Shown here in pieces: positions 2,470-26,544 of a stretch of 30,376 bases of DNA. Each line of letters begins with the position of its first letter. The stretch's first letter is position 1. The stretch is from the IMG/VR virus record IMGVR_UViG_2684622740_000002, positions 1-30,376 of that record, one strand, 5' to 3'. The notes beneath the pieces are model-generated. The model was not told where the DNA came from. It ran no database searches and worked only from the letters and a program-made list of their open reading frames with translations. The position numbers and the translations under genes were made by a program. The DNA comes from a virus.

Positions 2470-2946
2470 ATGAATACTACTAATAATGATTTTTTATTTG
2501 ATTTAATTAAATACAAGTATAATGAAGAAAATCAAAGAAACTTTGAAATCGACACTAAAAATAACAGCATGATTGCTTTTCTAGGAGTTATGTTAACTGT
2601 TCAAACTACATTTGGATCTTTCATTGAAAACATGACTTTATTATCTAAATTGGTTTTTATTTTATCATTAGTTTTTTATCTTTCTGCTTTAATTCTTTTA
2701 ATTCATTCTTATTATTTTAAAACTTTTAAAACTGTTCCTAACGCTAATATTCTTGAAAGTTATTATAATACTTTTAAAAATAAAGATGTCATTTTAAATG
2801 AGTTGTTTGGTGATTTTAAAAGAGCTATTGATTTTAATAGAGAAGTTATTAAAGTGAAAGTTAAGTTTTCTAAATTGGGTTTTTACTTGTTGATTTTTGG
2901 GGGATTGTTAGCAGTGATATTTGTAGTAACTTATTTAATATTGTAA
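2470..2946 (+). CDS. Three-TM membrane protein, loosely resembling Pycsar PycTM-like effectors (moron gene)
   Basis: Hydrophobic segments MIAFLGVMLTVQ, LVFILSLVFYLSALILLIH and LGFYLLIFGGLLAVIFVVTYLIL; IDTKNNSMIAFLGV resembles the D-x-K-x3-(L/I)-(A/G)-F-x-G pattern. Confidence 0.6.
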   Translation: MNTTNNDFLFDLIKYKYNEENQRNFEIDTKNNSMIAFLGVMLTVQTTFGSFIENMTLLSKLVFILSLVFYLSALILLIHSYYFKTFKTVPNANILESYYNTFKNKDVILNELFGDFKRAIDFNREVIKVKVKFSKLGFYLLIFGGLLAVIFVVTYLIL

Positions 2947-2998
2947 TTTATACTGCTTAACAATCCTCCCAAATTTTATTTAAATGATTTTTTTATTA

Positions 2999-3082
2999 TC
3001 ATTTTTCATCAGATTTTTCTGAGTATTCATCACGATCAGGAATATTATCATTCCTATCTTTATCATCAGTTAAATCAATCAA
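2999..3082 (-). CDS. Unannotated 27-aa acidic micropeptide (MIDLTDDKDRNDNIPDRDEYSEKSDEK)
   Basis: Perfect GGAGGTGAT RBS 5 nt before TTG on the minus strand; open frame with GAT/GAA-rich codons; below the ORF track length cutoff. Confidence 0.55.
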   Translation of the reverse strand: MIDLTDDKDRNDNIPDRDEYSEKSDEK

Positions 3083-3259
3083 TTATAATCACCTCCAATA
3101 ATTGTATTTAATTCTTTTAATAATTTCAATTTATATATTACAGTATTACTTTTTAGTATTACAATAGCTATTTTTCACGAAAAACACCATAGTTTTATTG
3201 AAATAGTAATACTTTTCACTAATATTTATAAAAATTATATTTTTTTAATCATTCAAAAT

Positions 3260-3285
3260 GCTCCCTGTGGGCTAGCGATAGCTAT
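3260..3285 (+). promoter_or_regulatory. Conserved leader motif copy 2 (GCTCCCTGTGGGC-TAGCGATAGCTAT), with TTTATAAA TATA-like box at 3225-3232
   Basis: Motif shared with 2046-2071 and 22853-22878; precedes the first gene of the head-tail operon. Confidence 0.65.
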
Positions 3286-3318
3286 AATTAAAGAAATAGC
3301 TAGGAGATGTAAAATACC

Positions 3319-4572
3319 ATGACCAAATCAAAAATAGTATACAAAAACAATAAACAAAAACTAATCACAGCACCAGTACTCATACCAGACTACGCTGACT
3401 GTGACGCACCAAGAGGAGAGAAAAAACTAACCATAGAAGAAATACAAGACTTCTCCCACAAATACATGGAAAAATACAGAATAAGTGACAAACAACACGA
3501 CTACTTCCAAACCAAAAAAGAAGTAGCTATTCCAGTAGAATCATGGACACTAAAAAGTGACACAGAAATGGACAATGGAGAAACCTACCCCAAAGGAACC
3601 TGATTTGTCACAATGAAAGTCCATGATGATGACACATGGAATAAAATAGAAAATGAAGAATACACTGGATTAAGTGTTACTGTGACTCCTGAAAATGTGG
3701 CTGATGCATTAGTAGCTGGTAAAAGTAGAACACTAATTAAAGATGTTCCCAATCCAGTTGCAGCCACAATAGCTTTTGTTGATAAACCATGTGTTCATAA
3801 GGCCACTTTTTGCAGTGTTAAATCAATTAATTCAAATGAATCTTATGAAAGTAAACACAAACTCTTAAATAATGCATTAAGGAATTTATACCGTGACAAG
3901 GACGTTTATGCTCACATTCTTCTTACATTTGATACTAAAATAATTGCTTATATGGAATGGCAACAATCAGAATCCCATTTTGAAATTCCATACTCCATAA
4001 ATGTTAATGGAGAAGTTGAATTTGGAGAACCACTTGAAGTTCAACAAGAATATGTGGCTAAAAAAATGTTAGAAAAAAGTGAAAAAGACACAGCTATTAA
4101 AGCAGGTAGAAGCATAAGCGATTCCACATACACAAAAATAAAGAAAGCATGGGATTCACTGGGAAACCTGATAAATAAAGCTGAAAATGAAAGAACTGAA
4201 AATGTGATTAAAGGTGATAAAATGACAGACAATAATGAAAAAGAATATGTTACTAAATCTGATTTAGAAAATCTTAAAACTGAAATATTAACAGCTGTTA
4301 AGTCAGCACAAAATAATGAATCTACTTCAAATAAAGAAGAAGATGAACTAACAAAATTGAAAAAAGAAAATGCTGATTTAAAAAAGAAACTTGAAAGTTC
4401 AAATAAATCAGATGAAACTAAAAATGAAGAAACCGACCCTGAAGAAATCAAAGGAGCATCAAAATCAATACCCAACCATGAAACCAACGATCAAATAAGT
4501 AAAAAAAGCACCAAAGCAACAGTATTAGAAGCAATGGGCAGAAATAGCAGCGGACTAACAATAAAAAAATAG
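3319..4572 (+). pseudogene. Prohead protease (XkdF-like serine protease) fused to a scaffold region, interrupted by an in-frame TGA at 3601-3603
   Basis: ORFs 3319-3603 and 3613-4572 are in the same frame and read YPKGT*FVTMKV, where XkdF-type proteases have KGTW...KV. DKQHD lies in the first part and YTGLSV in the second. Confidence 0.8.
4222..4572 (+). CDS. Probable nested in-frame scaffolding protein (116 aa) from an internal start
   Basis: AAAGGTGAT RBS 3 nt before an in-frame ATG (MTDNNEKE...); charged coiled-coil-like sequence immediately before the MCP gene. Confidence 0.5.
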   Translation: MTDNNEKEYVTKSDLENLKTEILTAVKSAQNNESTSNKEEDELTKLKKENADLKKKLESSNKSDETKNEETDPEEIKGASKSIPNHETNDQISKKSTKATVLEAMGRNSSGLTIKK

Positions 4573-22898: not shown

Positions 22899-23642
22899 AT
22901 GGATTGTAAAACCACAAATCTAAAAAAAGGAAGCAAAGGAACCGCAGTAGGAGAACTACAAAAATACTTAAAAGCATGTAAATTCTACAAAAGAGAAATA
23001 GACAATAAATATGGAGATTTCACAGTAGCAGCAGTTAAATTACTACAACATGCTCAAGGAAATAGTGAAGATGGAGTATTTGGCCCTAAAACTTGTGCTA
23101 AATCAGATTTAAACATGCTATCAACTGGAACTAGCACTAGTCAATCTATTAAGACTGTTAATGTAAAAGAATTACTTGTTTACTTCAAAAAGCAGCCAGA
23201 CATAGTTACCTGTGGTCCAACAAGTCTTTCAATGGCTTTTAGTTATTATGATGTTAATATAAGTATTGAATCACTTAGAAAATTATGTAATACCAATAGT
23301 AATGGCACAACTCCTGCAAATCTTATAAATGGTGCGAATAAGGTTAATTCTAAGTTTGTTCTTGTTGAAGAAGATTACAGTAATTTTAATCAAATCATTA
23401 AGCATATTGATAATAAGAATCCTTTAATTATTCAACTTCAAACAACTAAAAATCTTGGTTATCTTGGTTCTTATGGGCATTATGTTGCTTGTACTGGTTA
23501 TAATAAATCTGCTAAGCTTGTTAAAATAGCTGATCCTTCAAGGACTATTAAATGGGTTTCTTTAAGTGTTATTGTGGAGGCCATTAATAAGCGTTTGAGT
23601 TTAGGGAGTATTAAGCCTATTAAGGTTCTTAAAAAGAAATGA
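22899..23642 (+). CDS. Endolysin: PG_binding_1 domain plus peptidase C39-like catalytic domain (PeiR-type pseudomurein endoisopeptidase candidate)
   Basis: LKKGSKGTAVGELQKYL...DGVFGPKT; Q..VTCGPTSLSM (Cys), GHYV (His), IADPS (Asp). Confidence 0.85.
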   Translation: MDCKTTNLKKGSKGTAVGELQKYLKACKFYKREIDNKYGDFTVAAVKLLQHAQGNSEDGVFGPKTCAKSDLNMLSTGTSTSQSIKTVNVKELLVYFKKQPDIVTCGPTSLSMAFSYYDVNISIESLRKLCNTNSNGTTPANLINGANKVNSKFVLVEEDYSNFNQIIKHIDNKNPLIIQLQTTKNLGYLGSYGHYVACTGYNKSAKLVKIADPSRTIKWVSLSVIVEAINKRLSLGSIKPIKVLKKK

Positions 23643-23687: not shown

Positions 23688-23730
23688 GGAAACCTTTATA
23701 TACTACCTTAACCATAATATAATATAGAAC
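23688..23730 (+). promoter_or_regulatory. Archaeal promoter of peptide cassette 1 (BRE-TATA GGAAACCTTTATATACT)
   Basis: Canonical BRE/TATA; nearly identical to 24411-24453. Confidence 0.75.
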
Positions 23731-23750
23731 TTGTAAGGAGGTGAAAATAA

Positions 23751-23837
23751 ATGAAAATAGACTATAATAAGATTAATATTATTATAGGTGTTCTATCTTT
23801 AATCATTTCGATTATAGGACTCATACGAACACTGTAA
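23751..23837 (+). CDS. 28-aa single-TM peptide A1 (MKIDYNKINIIIGVLSLIISIIGLIRTL); candidate type I toxin
   Basis: Perfect AAGGAGGTGA RBS, own promoter, hydrophobic helix, followed by a hairpin. Confidence 0.75.
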   Translation: MKIDYNKINIIIGVLSLIISIIGLIRTL

Positions 23838-23845
23838 TAATAAAA

Positions 23846-23868
23846 ATGAGGGGTTAAAAACCTCTCAT
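23846..23868. other. Stem-loop ATGAGGGGTT-AAA-AACCTCTCAT after peptide A1
   Basis: 10-bp stem with one G-U pair. Confidence 0.8.
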
Positions 23869-23887
23869 ATAATCTTAAATTATAGTT

Positions 23888-23926
23888 ACTATTTAATTAT
23901 GTTACTTAAATATTATAAAAGTTTCT
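23888..23926 (-). promoter_or_regulatory. Convergent antisense promoter 1 (AGAAACTTTTATAATA on the minus strand)
   Basis: Purine-rich BRE plus TATA, followed about 12 nt later by ATAATT, the same spacing as the sense promoters; conserved in cassette 2. Confidence 0.6.
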
Positions 23927-23966
23927 AAAAAAATCATGAATTAAGAATTCAAAAAAGGTGATAATT

Positions 23967-24059
23967 ATGAGTATTGATCAAATGATTTGGATAATATTAA
24001 TAGTATTATTCTCAATTAAGATAATAATTTCAATCAAACAAATTAAAAGCAAAAACTAA
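23967..24059 (+). CDS. 30-aa single-TM peptide B1 (MSIDQMIWIILIVLFSIKIIISIKQIKSKN)
   Basis: AAGGTGAT RBS, hydrophobic core and basic tail. Confidence 0.65.
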   Translation: MSIDQMIWIILIVLFSIKIIISIKQIKSKN

Positions 24060-24068
24060 AAACTTAAA

Positions 24069-24089
24069 AACCTCTCAATTTGAGAGGTT
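24069..24089. other. Perfect inverted repeat AACCTCTCAA-T-TTGAGAGGTT after peptide B1
   Basis: 10-bp arms; shares TTAAAAACCTCTCA (24064-24077) with 23854-23867. Confidence 0.8.
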
Positions 24090-24115
24090 AAAATTATATT
24101 AAAAAAGGTGAAAAA

Positions 24116-24370
24116 ATGAAAACAAGCCAATACCCAAATGTTTATTATAATAAAAATACAGGAAAATGGACAGCCGAATTAAAAAGAAAAGGAAAAACAA
24201 TATTAAATGAATCCTTTGATAATGAGTATGATGCACATTTAGCAGTTGAAGAGAAAATGAAACTTGAAAATATAATGATAAAAACTGTTAAGCCTGTGGG
24301 TGGTACTGCTCATGTGTTAGTTCCTAGGAAATGGATAGGTAGGGAGGTGCAGATTATTTTATTGGATTAA
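24116..24370 (+). CDS. AP2-like DNA-binding domain fused to a DUF2080-like domain
   Basis: YPNVYYNKNTGKWTAEL...FDNEYDAHLA (AP2-like); KTVKPVGGTAHVLVPRKWIGREVQII (DUF2080/AbrB-like). Confidence 0.7.
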   Translation: MKTSQYPNVYYNKNTGKWTAELKRKGKTILNESFDNEYDAHLAVEEKMKLENIMIKTVKPVGGTAHVLVPRKWIGREVQIILLD

Positions 24371-24410
24371 TAGTTTTTTATATTTTTTTAATAATTATGA
24401 GTACAAAAAA

Positions 24411-24453
24411 GAAAACCTTTATATACTATAGAGTACAATATAATAATATAGAA
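24411..24453 (+). promoter_or_regulatory. Archaeal promoter of peptide cassette 2 (GAAAACCTTTATATACT)
   Basis: Canonical BRE/TATA plus ATAATATAGAA, as in cassette 1. Confidence 0.75.
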
Positions 24454-24472
24454 ATACAGGAGGTGAGATAAA

Positions 24473-24562
24473 ATGAGAAAAGCAGAAAAAATAAATTTAA
24501 TAATTGAGCTTGTGGGACTACTGATCATTGCAGCTCAACTATTAATTATGTTAAGTAAATAG
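24473..24562 (+). CDS. 29-aa single-TM peptide A2 (MRKAEKINLIIELVGLLIIAAQLLIMLSK); candidate type I toxin
   Basis: AGGAGGTGA RBS, own promoter, KIN-I-II pattern shared with A1, followed by a hairpin. Confidence 0.75.
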   Translation: MRKAEKINLIIELVGLLIIAAQLLIMLSK

Positions 24563-24586
24563 GGGGAAACCCCTAATACTTAACAT
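24548..24586. other. Extended stem-loop ATGTTAAGTA..TAGGGG-GAAA-CCCCTA..TACTTAACAT overlapping the A2 stop codon
   Basis: 6-bp inner stem with a GAAA tetraloop plus a 10-bp outer stem. Confidence 0.8.
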
Positions 24587-24620
24587 ATAATTATGTAACA
24601 TCTACTATTTATAAATTTCT
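24584..24620 (-). promoter_or_regulatory. Convergent antisense promoter 2 (AGAAATTTATAAATA on the minus strand)
   Basis: Same layout as 23888-23926, including GT(A/T)ACATAATTA. Confidence 0.6.
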
Positions 24621-24632
24621 AAAGGAGAGGAT

Positions 24633-24722
24633 ATTATTATAAAAATATTACTTATTACAATATTTATAATAACTATACTAAAAATTATACTAATCTTTTA
24701 TAAAGATAAAAAAAACATATAA
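24633..24722 (+). CDS. Possible 29-codon TM peptide B2 (IIIKILLITIFIITILKIILIFYKDKKNI) with a non-canonical ATT start
   Basis: AAAGGAGAGG RBS, open hydrophobic frame with a basic tail, positionally equivalent to B1; no ATG, so it may be degenerate. Confidence 0.4.
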   Translation: MIIKILLITIFIITILKIILIFYKDKKNI

Positions 24723-24762
24723 TATTAAATTACTTTTTAATTATTAAAATGGGTGATTAAAT

Positions 24763-25134
24763 ATGAGTATTAGAGTAAGCGAAAAAACAAGACAACAACT
24801 AGAAACACTAAAATATGAACTAAACTTATCAAATTACGATGAAGTAATAAAACTAGCAATTAAAAACATACCCCATATAGTTAAAACAGAAGTTAAACCA
24901 CCAGTATTTGTATTAAACTCAATCACCAAAAATAAAGAATTTGAAAAAAGAGTATACTGGGATGATCTTGAAAAAGCAAAAACTGGAGATATATTTAAGT
25001 ATGGATCAGATGATGTTTTTATTAGTGAGGAGTTCGCAACAGTATTATTTAAAGATGAAAATGGTGTTTTTATCCGTTTAACAAAAAAAGATACCTATGA
25101 TACATATGAAGATGTAATTTATTACTCTTTATGA
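24763..25134 (+). CDS. Ribbon-helix-helix (CopG/antitoxin-like) N-terminal domain protein
   Basis: MSIRVSEKTRQQLETLKYELNLSNYDEVIKLAI; GGGTGAT RBS. Confidence 0.7.
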   Translation: MSIRVSEKTRQQLETLKYELNLSNYDEVIKLAIKNIPHIVKTEVKPPVFVLNSITKNKEFEKRVYWDDLEKAKTGDIFKYGSDDVFISEEFATVLFKDENGVFIRLTKKDTYDTYEDVIYYSL

Positions 25135-25380
25135 ATTATTTTATTATTTTTCATTTCTTTTTAATGAATATTTTAAAATATTAATTTATTTCATTTTCTG
25201 TTTTAATAACTATTAGTGCAAAACTTTAATAACTAATTATTAACTAATTATTAAAATAGAGCTAAAAAGTAAAGATATTTATAGAAATTCCTACAATATA
25301 TAATTACTATTACATAAAATTCTATAAATTGTACAAGTTTAGTTGGTTTTATTAAATCATTATGGAGATATGGAGATAAG

Positions 25381-26544
25381 ATGAAATTTGCTCATTTAGC
25401 TGACACTCACTTAGGATACAGACAATATGGTCTTTTTGAAAGAGAAGAAGATTTTTATCATGTTTTTCAGGAGATAATTGACAATATAATTGAAGAAAGA
25501 GTAGATTTTGTAATCCATAGTGGAGATCTTTTTGAAATTTCAAAACCTTCTCCCAATGCTTTACTTGTATTTCAAGAGGCATTAATGAAATTAAATGATG
25601 CTAATATACCTATTTATGGAATACCTGGAAATCATGATATTATTATGAGGAAAAATGCATTGCCTCCTCAAATATTATTTAGAAAATTAGGACTAAAACT
25701 AATTAGCCATAACAACCCTTTTTATATCCAGGATAATGTGTTTATTGGAGGAACCCCATATCATTCTAAGGCACACCATGATAAACTGGTTGACAAGCTT
25801 CAATTTGTATCTAAACAAAGTGCAGAACATGATAAAAGGATATTAGTTATACATCAAGGGATTGATAAATATTTACCCTTTGAATATGAGCTTGAAATGG
25901 CAGAGATTCCAACTAATTTTAACTATTATGCTTGTGGGCATGTTCATAATAGGATAAATGATGAATTTGGTGAGGGTAAATTAACTTATCCAGGGTCAAC
26001 TGAAATATGGAAATCAAATGAGGTTTCTGATTATAAAAAGAAAGGAAAAGGATTTTTTTTAGTAGATATTGGTGGAGATATTCCTGAAGTAGAGCCTATT
26101 AATGTAGATATGATGCGAGAGTTCATAGTTAAAGATATAGATTATAGAAAAATAGATGAAGAGTTTTTATCTCTTGAAAAAGATGTAGAAGTTTTAAAAA
26201 ATAAGCCTGTGTTGAATATTACAATATCTGGAGAGAATATTAATAGAACGGATGTTTATGAGAAAATTAATGAAATTTTTTCTAAAATAGCTTTAACTAT
26301 ACGTCCTAATTTCAGAAATATTATAAAAAATGAACATACAGATGTTATAATTTCAAATGATACTTTAGATGCTAAAAGTATTATTGTGAATGAACTTAAA
26401 CATTATGATAATGAAGATATAACTAATTTAGCTATTGATCTTTTAAATGAACTTCCAAAGGAAGATATGGGAAATTCCAAGATTATAACCGAAAAATTTT
26501 TCAATGACTATTTTGATAGAGAAATAAAATGGGATGACATATAA
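25381..26544 (+). CDS. mre11: DNA double-strand break repair nuclease Mre11
   Basis: AHLADTHLG, IHSGDLFE, GIPGNHD, IHQG and YACGHVH metallophosphoesterase motifs; adjacent to rad50. Confidence 0.96.
   Translation: MKFAHLADTHLGYRQYGLFEREEDFYHVFQEIIDNIIEERVDFVIHSGDLFEISKPSPNALLVFQEALMKLNDANIPIYGIPGNHDIIMRKNALPPQILFRKLGLKLISHNNPFYIQDNVFIGGTPYHSKAHHDKLVDKLQFVSKQSAEHDKRILVIHQGIDKYLPFEYELEMAEIPTNFNYYACGHVHNRINDEFGEGKLTYPGSTEIWKSNEVSDYKKKGKGFFLVDIGGDIPEVEPINVDMMREFIVKDIDYRKIDEEFLSLEKDVEVLKNKPVLNITISGENINRTDVYEKINEIFSKIALTIRPNFRNIIKNEHTDVIISNDTLDAKSIIVNELKHYDNEDITNLAIDLLNELPKEDMGNSKIITEKFFNDYFDREIKWDDI

Follow-up and report, generated by a model that had tools for sequence, protein, structure and literature searches.

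A conserved module of two membrane peptides, stem-loops and a ribbon-helix-helix regulator in Methanobacteriaceae proviruses, possibly under antisense control

Towards the end of a viral DNA of 30,376 nucleotides (nt) (IMG/VR record IMGVR_UViG_2684622740_000002; here called the window, which is the whole contig G000:C16 of a 2.6-Mb Methanobacteriaceae assembly), two successive cassettes, cassette 1 at 23688-24370 and cassette 2 at 24411-25134, raise the question of why a tailed provirus of a methanogen would keep tiny hydrophobic peptide genes among hairpins and promoter-like elements that face each other. A previous sequence-only reading of the locus had answered with a candidate type I toxin-antitoxin (TA) system, where a small membrane toxin would be silenced by a convergent antisense RNA, and all the elements that it listed were found in place from sequence, open reading frames (ORFs), repeats and hairpins. 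The two cassettes are copies of a single conserved module, which runs through a promoter, an untranslated region (UTR) and a GGAGGTGA Shine-Dalgarno (SD) sequence, a peptide gene (A), a GC hairpin at or just after the stop codon of A, an AT-rich spacer with a back-facing element that resembles a TFB-recognition element (BRE) and a TATA box, a second peptide gene (B) and, finally, a gene for a protein of the ribbon-helix-helix (RHH) type. That this module is real, with its elements in a conserved order, is hardly in doubt, and as judged from sequence it is a previously undescribed accessory operon of tailed Methanobacteriaceae proviruses, MSTV1-like viruses and their relatives. An operon controlled by antisense RNA, with the type I TA as a sub-case, is the explanation that we tentatively favour, at a probability of about 0.48.

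Evidence for the module comes in the first place from its distribution. A profile search found homologues of the RHH protein in 27 of 301 Methanobacteriaceae genomes, belonging to 6 of 27 genera, and the 600 nt upstream of each match displayed the same layout in nearly all cases. The order of elements was found again in MSTV1 (twice), in vir080 and in contigs of IMG/VR and Logan/GenBank; this is the recurrence in Methanobacteriales proviruses that the sequence-only reading had named as a check, and the hairpin and, for the most part, the minus-strand element are kept in the related modules. An exhaustive HMMER search with the 123-aa RHH protein of cassette 2 retrieved 13 relatives, and scans of metagenomes and genomes added two further loci; single-protein and word-index searches with the same protein returned no match but itself. 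The nearest relatives of cassette 2 (L070, L071/72/74, L075 and L107) were obtained by HMMER, contig look-ups and scans. As regards the promoter, the joint pattern TATA-UTR-GGAGGTG gave 14 matches in the 301 family genomes, all of them at module loci, with 0 control matches. The core of the main promoter was rejected as a marker when taken by itself: a DNA search with the whole region in 60 relatives yielded AT-rich noise and generic strong promoters, so that only promoter, UTR and SD jointly are specific to the module.

The module is present in the Methanobrevibacter smithii virus MSTV1 (PP537965.1), the only cultured virus of the dominant methanogen of the human gut. In a blastn comparison with phage records, the promoter and UTR of A2, the A gene of cassette 2, matched MSTV1 (78.5% identity) and vir080. 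The right-hand match in MSTV1 falls in an unannotated gap of 471 nt between the Pei lysin and the last gene, annotated as a 'putative DNA-binding protein', and both this gap and its vir080 equivalent contain, in order, a promoter followed by GGAGGTG, a hydrophobic ORF of 26 aa with a GC hairpin spanning its stop codon, an AT-rich spacer, a 48-50-aa ORF with two transmembrane (TM) segments and a 113-aa protein. This 113-aa protein aligns over its full length with the 123-aa protein of the window at 24-31% identity and has the same two-domain layout. A second copy, inverted, occupies the gap that separates ORF5 from the putative repressor ORF6, and the two modules (2826-3189 on the minus strand and 37955-38317 on the plus strand) are located near the two genome ends; two inverted copies were also seen in G126, G170 and the IMG/VR contig L038. 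In both MSTV1 gaps (2773-3497, 725 nt, and 37891-38361, 471 nt) A, B, the hairpins and the back-facing element are all unannotated, and the published annotation of this virus therefore misses the module genes. The products of ORF5 and ORF53, described as 'putative DNA-binding protein' and 'VapB-like antitoxin' (PMC11375127; PP537965.1), are homologues of the 123-aa protein, the right-hand one with the same position after a lysin, but they were treated in MSTV1 as stand-alone genes; the 'stand-alone VapB-like antitoxin' is instead encoded in third place in an operon, after two membrane peptides. A complete A2-type module preceded by a Pei-like pseudomurein endoisopeptidase was also observed in L107 (JAISGP010000144.1), a contig binned in a Lachnospiraceae metagenome-assembled genome and most likely a mis-binned contig of a methanogen virus.

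Cassette 2 of the window carries every element of the ORF5/ORF53 module of MSTV1 type, and cassette 1 carries all of them except the RHH gene, which is replaced in position by an AP2-DUF2080 gene. The two main promoters have in common a 21-nt block with 95% identity. As for the protein that closes the module, the AlphaFold2 (AF2) model of the 123-aa protein, with a predicted local distance difference test score (pLDDT) of 89.7, shows an RHH fold in residues 1-43, a domain for which VIA gave Z of 5-6 to MazE9-N, NikR and ParD2, and sequence matches support the assignment (NikR, E 0.015; VAPB_antitox, 6e-5 in two members). The VIA matches cover mainly residues 1-43, and the beta-rich C-terminal domain had no Foldseek match at E<=0.001. 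The operon partners of this protein are only the TM peptides A and B, and no adjacent type II toxin (PIN, RelE, MazF and the like) was found. In this regard, the sequence-only reading had described the second peptide and the regulator as an extra tier, alien to the classical type I layout; the tier is indeed present, but it constitutes the conserved core of the module, given that B and the RHH gene persist in L054/L106 without A and its hairpin.

The peptides are small and hydrophobic in every case. All the modules have an ORF of 25-32 codons that opens 5-9 nt after the SD, and both A genes of the window begin 6 nt past GGAGGTGA. The A gene is hypervariable between lineages with similar B and RHH genes. 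The sequence-only reading had seen the same layout with unrelated coding sequences in the two cassettes, which holds for A1 and A2 but not for B1 and B2, members of one loose family. Relatives of A2 were recognized in L070, L071, L075 and L107, and those of B2 in L054, L070, L071, L075 and L107. The four peptides of the window have 28-30 aa and a best 17-aa hydropathy of 2.69-3.13, when 5.9% of random ORFs of 25-35 codons in this genome reach 2.5; more generally, A and the short form of B have 26-30 aa, and the long form of B contains two TM segments. Summing over nine pairs within A families, 83, 39 and 85 differences were counted at codon positions 1, 2 and 3, respectively. The second position changes half as often as the first and third, as expected where hydrophobic residues are selected for, and amino-acid similarity outlasts DNA divergence within the peptide families. 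Selection acts on A and B as hydrophobic peptides. Neither of them matched a PHROG or Pfam family, and the region had no Rfam match at E<=1.

A peculiar trait of these genes is their initiation codon. In about 14 of 20 distinct A genes (L028, L029, L038, L040, L041, L044, L047, L051, L052, L067, L070, L071, L075 and L107) ATT is the sole possible start, in the context GGAGGTGA-N5-ATTGA. The TTG frame that overlaps ATTGA is out of frame and closes within 2-9 codons, and a GTG within the SD was excluded as an in-frame start of A in L075, where a TAA intervenes, and in L052, where it is out of frame. Moreover, ATG and ATT interchange at homologous starts of A, with ATG in L046 versus ATT in L052, and ATG in A2 of the window versus ATT in L070, L071, L075 and L107. 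The B2 gene offers a similar case: the sequence-only reading listed it as a second TM peptide with a basic tail, which it does encode, but its frame, which opens past a TAA at 24612, has no ATG, GTG or TTG and its start must be the ATT at 24636, the codon at which its homologues in L054, L070, L071 and L107 have ATG. We know of no archaeal precedent for conserved ATT initiation, and the module would provide some 14 independent archaeal examples of an ATT start conserved at a fixed distance from the SD. With respect to the expected output, the predicted probability that the SD is unpaired amounts to 0.90 for A2, 0.82-0.86 for L071 and L075, and 0.26 for A1. The open SD of A2 together with a near-consensus promoter suggests that A is probably made in quantity, which would be more in line with a membrane factor that is tolerated than with a potent toxin, and the ATT starts of most relatives would dampen translation.

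The RNA that encodes A is highly structured. A terminal hairpin exists in all the modules, with stem sequences that differ from one to another and usually taking in the last codons of A, and within every A ORF there is, besides, an inverted repeat of 7-15 bp or more. One stem-loop for each copy had been reported by the sequence-only reading; both are present, but hairpin 2 overlaps the stop codon of A2 and a third hairpin precedes the AP2-DUF2080 gene. From codon 4 to the end of the hairpin, each module folds far beyond its dinucleotide shuffles, with z of -2.8 to -8.6 on the plus strand and -1.5 to -8.4 on the minus strand (-5.8 sense and -3.8 antisense in cassette 1; -5.5 sense and -8.4 antisense in cassette 2). 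The predicted antisense RNA of cassette 2 has a folding energy of -38.3 kcal/mol (z -8.41), equalled by 0 of 200 shuffles. Such a degree of structure is far beyond chance, and these short coding sequences would be under dual selection, as a hydrophobic peptide and as an RNA with a double stem-loop. RNAalifold on a MAFFT alignment of five loci of the A2 family recovered both hairpins, and its positive covariation term is due to stems lying in different registers. An assignment of the structure to one strand through folding-energy asymmetry or counts of G.U and A.C was rejected, as there was no consistent bias (9 versus 9 lineages), the plus strand being favoured in some lineages (MSTV1-right, L038- and cassette 1 of the window) and the minus strand in others (L046/L052/L049/L044).

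The case for antisense control turns on the back-facing element of the spacer. A block of 48 nt located 3' of the hairpins (23882-23929 and 24576-24623) is 71% identical between the two cassettes and contains, in minus reading, AGAAAC-TTTTATAAT in cassette 1 and AGAAA-TTTATAAAT in cassette 2. Within the region between hairpin and B, 15 of 18 modules (13 of 16 once two near-identical pairs are removed) carry the pattern RAAA-N0-2-TTTAWAW on the minus strand and 2 of 18 carry it on the plus strand, to be compared with 3.6% of 1109 ordinary 100-nt 3' flanks of this genome on their antisense strand. The stricter AGAAA-N0-2-TTTAWAW, held by both cassettes of the window, occurs antisense in 0.3% of the same 1109 flanks, and an asymmetric TTTATATA is read on the minus strand in L066, L070, L071, L075, L107, L051 and L053. 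As a sequence pattern, the back-facing element is shown by these counts to be orientation-specific and lineage-wide. Its distance to the hairpin base, measured by eye, is 21-32 nt in most modules and around 40 nt in cassette 1 of the window and in L070, which would put the 5' end of a transcript initiated some 23 nt downstream at the hairpin or just ahead of it. The strong SD of B lies 6-20 nt past the TATA of the element, too close for the element to serve as promoter of a B mRNA led by this SD. An A5 run precedes hairpin 1, which corresponds to T5 past the hairpin on the minus strand, and the subfamily of the window has no T5 between A and B, so its A-run is not merely the reverse of a terminator. 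The conserved minus-strand promoter announced by the sequence-only reading is thus upheld as an oriented, conserved element, although rigid position weight matrices (PWMs) do not single out the two elements of the window.

Other descriptions of the element were discarded. With a fixed-spacing PWM of BRE plus TATA, the minus elements of the window stood at a background fraction of about 0.007 or were outscored by unrelated sites, and GTACAATATAAT after the TATA, considered as a motif common to main promoter and minus elements, had a median background fraction of 0.24. Loose TATA motifs are ubiquitous in this genome and had no positional enrichment upstream of crude gene calls, so that a TATA match alone means nothing here.

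With these pieces, a tentative scheme can be drawn. A near-consensus promoter and a perfect ribosome-binding site (RBS) would drive the tiny, fast-evolving membrane peptide A, whose coding RNA would adopt two stem-loops, one within the ORF and another over the stop codon, and sense transcription would run on into B and an autoregulating repressor of RHH type. The BRE/TATA just upstream of the RBS of B would most likely fire a short cis-antisense RNA from the base of the terminal hairpin across A, which might limit A by pairing, by transcriptional collision or by both. The module would be expressed from the prophage, outside the virion and the lysis programme, as a lysogenic-conversion ('moron'-like) function for the exclusion of related viruses or for addiction. 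In this scheme we infer the antisense transcription, the biological role and any toxicity of A or B. On the side of expression, the RHH gene in the left cassette of MSTV1 (ORF5) is transcribed in lysogens at 2.7 reads per million (RPM), with lysis genes below 0.5 RPKM (reads per million, counted for each kilobase), in a study that mentions neither a holin nor the A and B peptides (PMC11375127).

Several observations weigh against antisense control. In two tests with PWMs derived from the main promoters of the modules, the minus elements of the window were not above background (fractions 0.007 and 0.03-0.10), and MSTV1-right and L067 are devoid of the BRE-like A-run. The Methanobrevibacter (g5) modules have a palindromic ATTTAAAT amid plus-strand T5-T8 tracts, where the element might belong to a sense terminator. 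Since G.U and A.C mismatches are about equal over the lineages, the RNA structure is not assignable to the antisense strand. The RHH protein probably autoregulates the unit, a role assumed from the fold alone. Finally, A and the hairpin have been deleted in one natural variant of Methanobrevibacter sp. Th196P3bin91 (L054 = L106 = L108; around 1000-1200 of L106), in which the TATA-like element persists and B and RHH are intact; the promoter is also kept there, the SD has decayed and a remnant of an A2-type ORF with 8 codons runs into the spacer TATA.

A plain sense operon, lacking any antisense RNA, is a possible explanation for much of the above. The stem-loops would then act within the mRNA of A through stability, ribosome pausing or partial termination, leaving more A than B or regulator; the TATA-like element would simply come with an AT/T-rich terminator or would bind a protein, and the peptides would be membrane factors of the prophage, for instance in superinfection exclusion. 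In 12 of 18 modules the plus strand does have a T5-T8 tract after the hairpin, the position of the hairpin over the stop codon of A means that ribosomes would open it, and the plus strand is favoured by a large asymmetry of G.U type in three lineages (L028, L038- and cassette 1 of the window), in addition to the lack of PWM support for the minus element and to a promoter and an open SD suggesting that A is simply abundant. On the other hand, the pattern of the element is orientation-specific and far more frequent than in ordinary 3' flanks, and the window subfamily keeps it in the absence of a T5 tract. Furthermore, the lineage of L046/L052/L049/L044 folds better on the minus strand by 5-12 kcal/mol, and a simple terminator leaves unexplained the inverted repeat within every A ORF.

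The type I TA is a special case of the antisense-controlled operon, and we consider it unlikely. In an arrangement like par/Fst or TxpA/RatA, the membrane toxin would be A (or B) and its antitoxin the hairpin-sharing convergent antisense RNA, to which the RHH protein would add a transcriptional layer. All the evidence for an antisense promoter applies to it as well; the peptides are small and single-TM with basic tails, the RNA of A is highly structured and A evolves quickly, the weak ATT starts, present in about 14 of the 20 A genes, would hold down the level of a harmful peptide, and the module sits at prophage ends, adjoining another TA locus in MSTV1. Classical examples are par of the Enterococcus plasmid pAD1 (Fst, with RNA I and RNA II) and, in Bacillus subtilis prophages, TxpA/RatA and BsrG/SR4. 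These systems resemble the module in having a gene for a small single-TM peptide, a convergent promoter downstream of it and a prophage location, and in RNAs, predicted in our case, that overlap at a stem-loop flanked by A- and T-runs. They differ in that the module has no sequence or Rfam/Pfam relation to them, is archaeal with a BRE/TATA promoter, has a peptide gene at the head of an operon that also encodes another peptide and an RHH regulator, and is predicted to leave the SD of A2 unsequestered; its antisense RNA is predicted and its toxicity putative. Against a TA function, no likeness to any type I toxin or RNA family was found in PHROG, Pfam or Rfam, A2 combines an open SD with a near-consensus promoter when many type I toxin mRNAs are kept translationally silent, and the conserved partners, those that the L054 variant has retained, are B and RHH and not the A gene with its hairpin. 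It is accordingly doubtful that the module is a first archaeal type I TA, that is, one with convergent RNAs of par/Fst type sharing a hairpin and a hypervariable membrane toxin translated from a weak ATT, sharing its operon with another membrane peptide and an RHH repressor, and present in one or two copies in viruses of gut and rumen methanogens including MSTV1. The statement of the sequence-only reading that no archaeal type I TA has been characterised agrees with a 2026 preprint, according to which none has yet been found in Archaea, and pairs of small protein and antisense RNA do exist in Methanosarcina mazei.

Antisense control of the operon as a whole, with or without a toxin, finds a different parallel in the immI region of phage P22, which comprises arc (an RHH repressor), ant and the small antisense sar RNA transcribed from a promoter inside the operon. 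Both are accessory operons of temperate viruses, with an RHH regulator and a short antisense RNA (predicted here) from an internal promoter that faces the main one, but the regulated gene of the module encodes a membrane peptide instead of an antirepressor, the gene order is different and the module is known from sequence alone. In terms of function, HK97 gp15 and T4 Imm are small inner-membrane exclusion proteins ('morons'). The module is like them a self-contained unit of promoter, gene and hairpin at the end of the late region, with small TM products that evolve fast and would be expressed from the prophage; its peptides are much smaller, a dedicated RHH regulator and a strongly structured coding RNA are present, and exclusion is putative. 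Whichever parallel holds, the module is a concrete and conserved candidate for antisense-RNA control in Archaea, and possibly for a first type I TA.

Because the module directly follows a lysin in three viruses, lysis timing has to be weighed as a rival, with A and B as proteins of holin/antiholin type serving the adjacent endolysin. The lysins are of two types (C39-type in the window, Pei in MSTV1 and a Pei-like enzyme with 30% identity and E 2e-18 in L107), no holin is known for these viruses, and the long form of B has two TM segments. We nevertheless regard this reading as improbable: the left copy of MSTV1 lies beside the repressor gene, in the region of lysogeny control, and its regulator is on in lysogens in which the lysis genes are silent; the MSTV1-left and vir080 modules are not beside an endolysin; the module has a strong promoter of its own; the peptides match no holin family; and A and short-form B have just 26-30 aa. 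Even less probable is that A is a structured small RNA with two stem-loops and an incidental ORF, as might be thought from the very strong folding z in every lineage regardless of the peptide family and from the non-canonical ATT of most 'start codons', since a perfect SD at fixed spacing, an ORF kept open in all of the approximately 20 modules despite AT-rich DNA, the reduced change at second codon positions, amino-acid similarity across diverged DNA and an invariably present hydrophobic core all speak for a translated gene.

Table 1. Position of the module features and the adjacent endolysin in the window
Feature	Position	Strand	Basis and remarks
Endolysin (PG_binding_1 + Peptidase_C39)	22899..23642	+	Pfam/PHROG matches; directly upstream of cassette 1
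Cassette 1 main promoter (BRE 23688-23694, TATA 23695-23702)	23688..23702	+	sequence; promoter comparison
GGAGGTGA RBS of A1	23737..23744	+	sequence
A1, 28 aa, single TM, ATG start	23751..23837	+	ORF; hydropathy 2.69; internal RNA stem ~23777-23842; sense fold z -5.8
Hairpin 1, 10 bp, one G.U in plus sense	23846..23868		plus -11.3, minus -7.4 kcal/mol
Back-facing BRE/TATA-like element 1 (TATA 23913-23920, BRE 23921-23926)	23913..23926	-	strict pattern match; predicted antisense start ~23890
B1, 30 aa, TM with basic tail	23967..24059	+	ORF; SD AAGGTGA at 23955-23961
Hairpin 3, upstream of AP2 gene	24069..24089		repeat and hairpin search
AP2-DUF2080 DNA-binding protein, 84 aa	24116..24370	+	Pfam DUF2080 25.4 bits; PHROG match
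Cassette 2 main promoter (BRE 24411-24417, TATA 24418-24425)	24411..24425	+	sequence; promoter comparison
GGAGGTGA RBS of A2	24459..24466	+	sequence; predicted 90% unpaired
A2, 29 aa, TM, ATG start	24473..24562	+	ORF; inverted repeat, 24497-24510 pairs with 24532-24545
Predicted antisense RNA of cassette 2	~24480..24590	-	two stem-loops, then U-rich tail
Hairpin 2, 39-nt stem with extended 10-bp outer stem, core 24560-24575 over TAG stop of A2	24548..24586		plus -20.1, minus -19.3 kcal/mol
Back-facing BRE/TATA-like element 2 (palindromic TATA 24608-24615, BRE 24616-24621)	24608..24621	-	strict pattern match; predicted antisense start ~24585
B2, 28 aa, TM with basic tail, ATT start	24636..24722	+	SD GGAGAGGA at 24623-24630
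123-aa regulator, RHH N-terminus and beta-rich C-terminal domain	24763..25134	+	homologue of MSTV1 ORF5 and ORF53

The surroundings of the two cassettes (Table 1) place them within the provirus. Head, tail and lysis genes of a tailed provirus occupy the plus strand up to the endolysin, and host genes of Mre11/Rad50 type, recognized by domain matches, begin at 25381; lying between the lysin and host DNA, the cassettes are therefore at the right end of the provirus. A gap of 246 nt, AT-rich, separates the RHH gene from the host Mre11-type gene (25135-25380) and presumably contains the junction between provirus and host. The contig does not reach the left end of the provirus.

As for the gene that stands in the place of the RHH gene in cassette 1, the AP2-DUF2080 fusion was found, among the 301 family genomes, in this genome only and in two copies, and was consequently rejected as a conserved third gene. 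The second copy, on contig C141 (L002 728-1046), has the same hairpin before the gene, near-identical in both copies (AACCTCTCAAT(T)TGAGAGGT), and abuts a truncated RHH gene, which suggests that AP2-DUF2080 is probably a small mobile or homing element. The RHH gene of cassette 1 has thus probably been replaced by a mobile AP2-DUF2080 gene. The tandem arrangement would result from duplication followed by rearrangement, and the occurrence of the same layout twice would be due in part to that duplication and to the insertion of AP2-DUF2080. Two short repeats were also observed in cassette 1. An exact repeat of 14 nt, TTAAAAACCTCTCA, is located at 23854-23867, within the 3' arm of hairpin 1, and at 24064-24077, on the 5' side of hairpin 3, and may be the trace of a recombination between hairpins. 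In the spacer, 20 nt (23893-23912) are 90% identical to the last codons of A2 (24542-24561), which suggests a relic of the end of an A2-type gene within cassette 1. Outside the window, an AP2-like reading frame was seen in L071 on the opposite strand, just upstream of the module.

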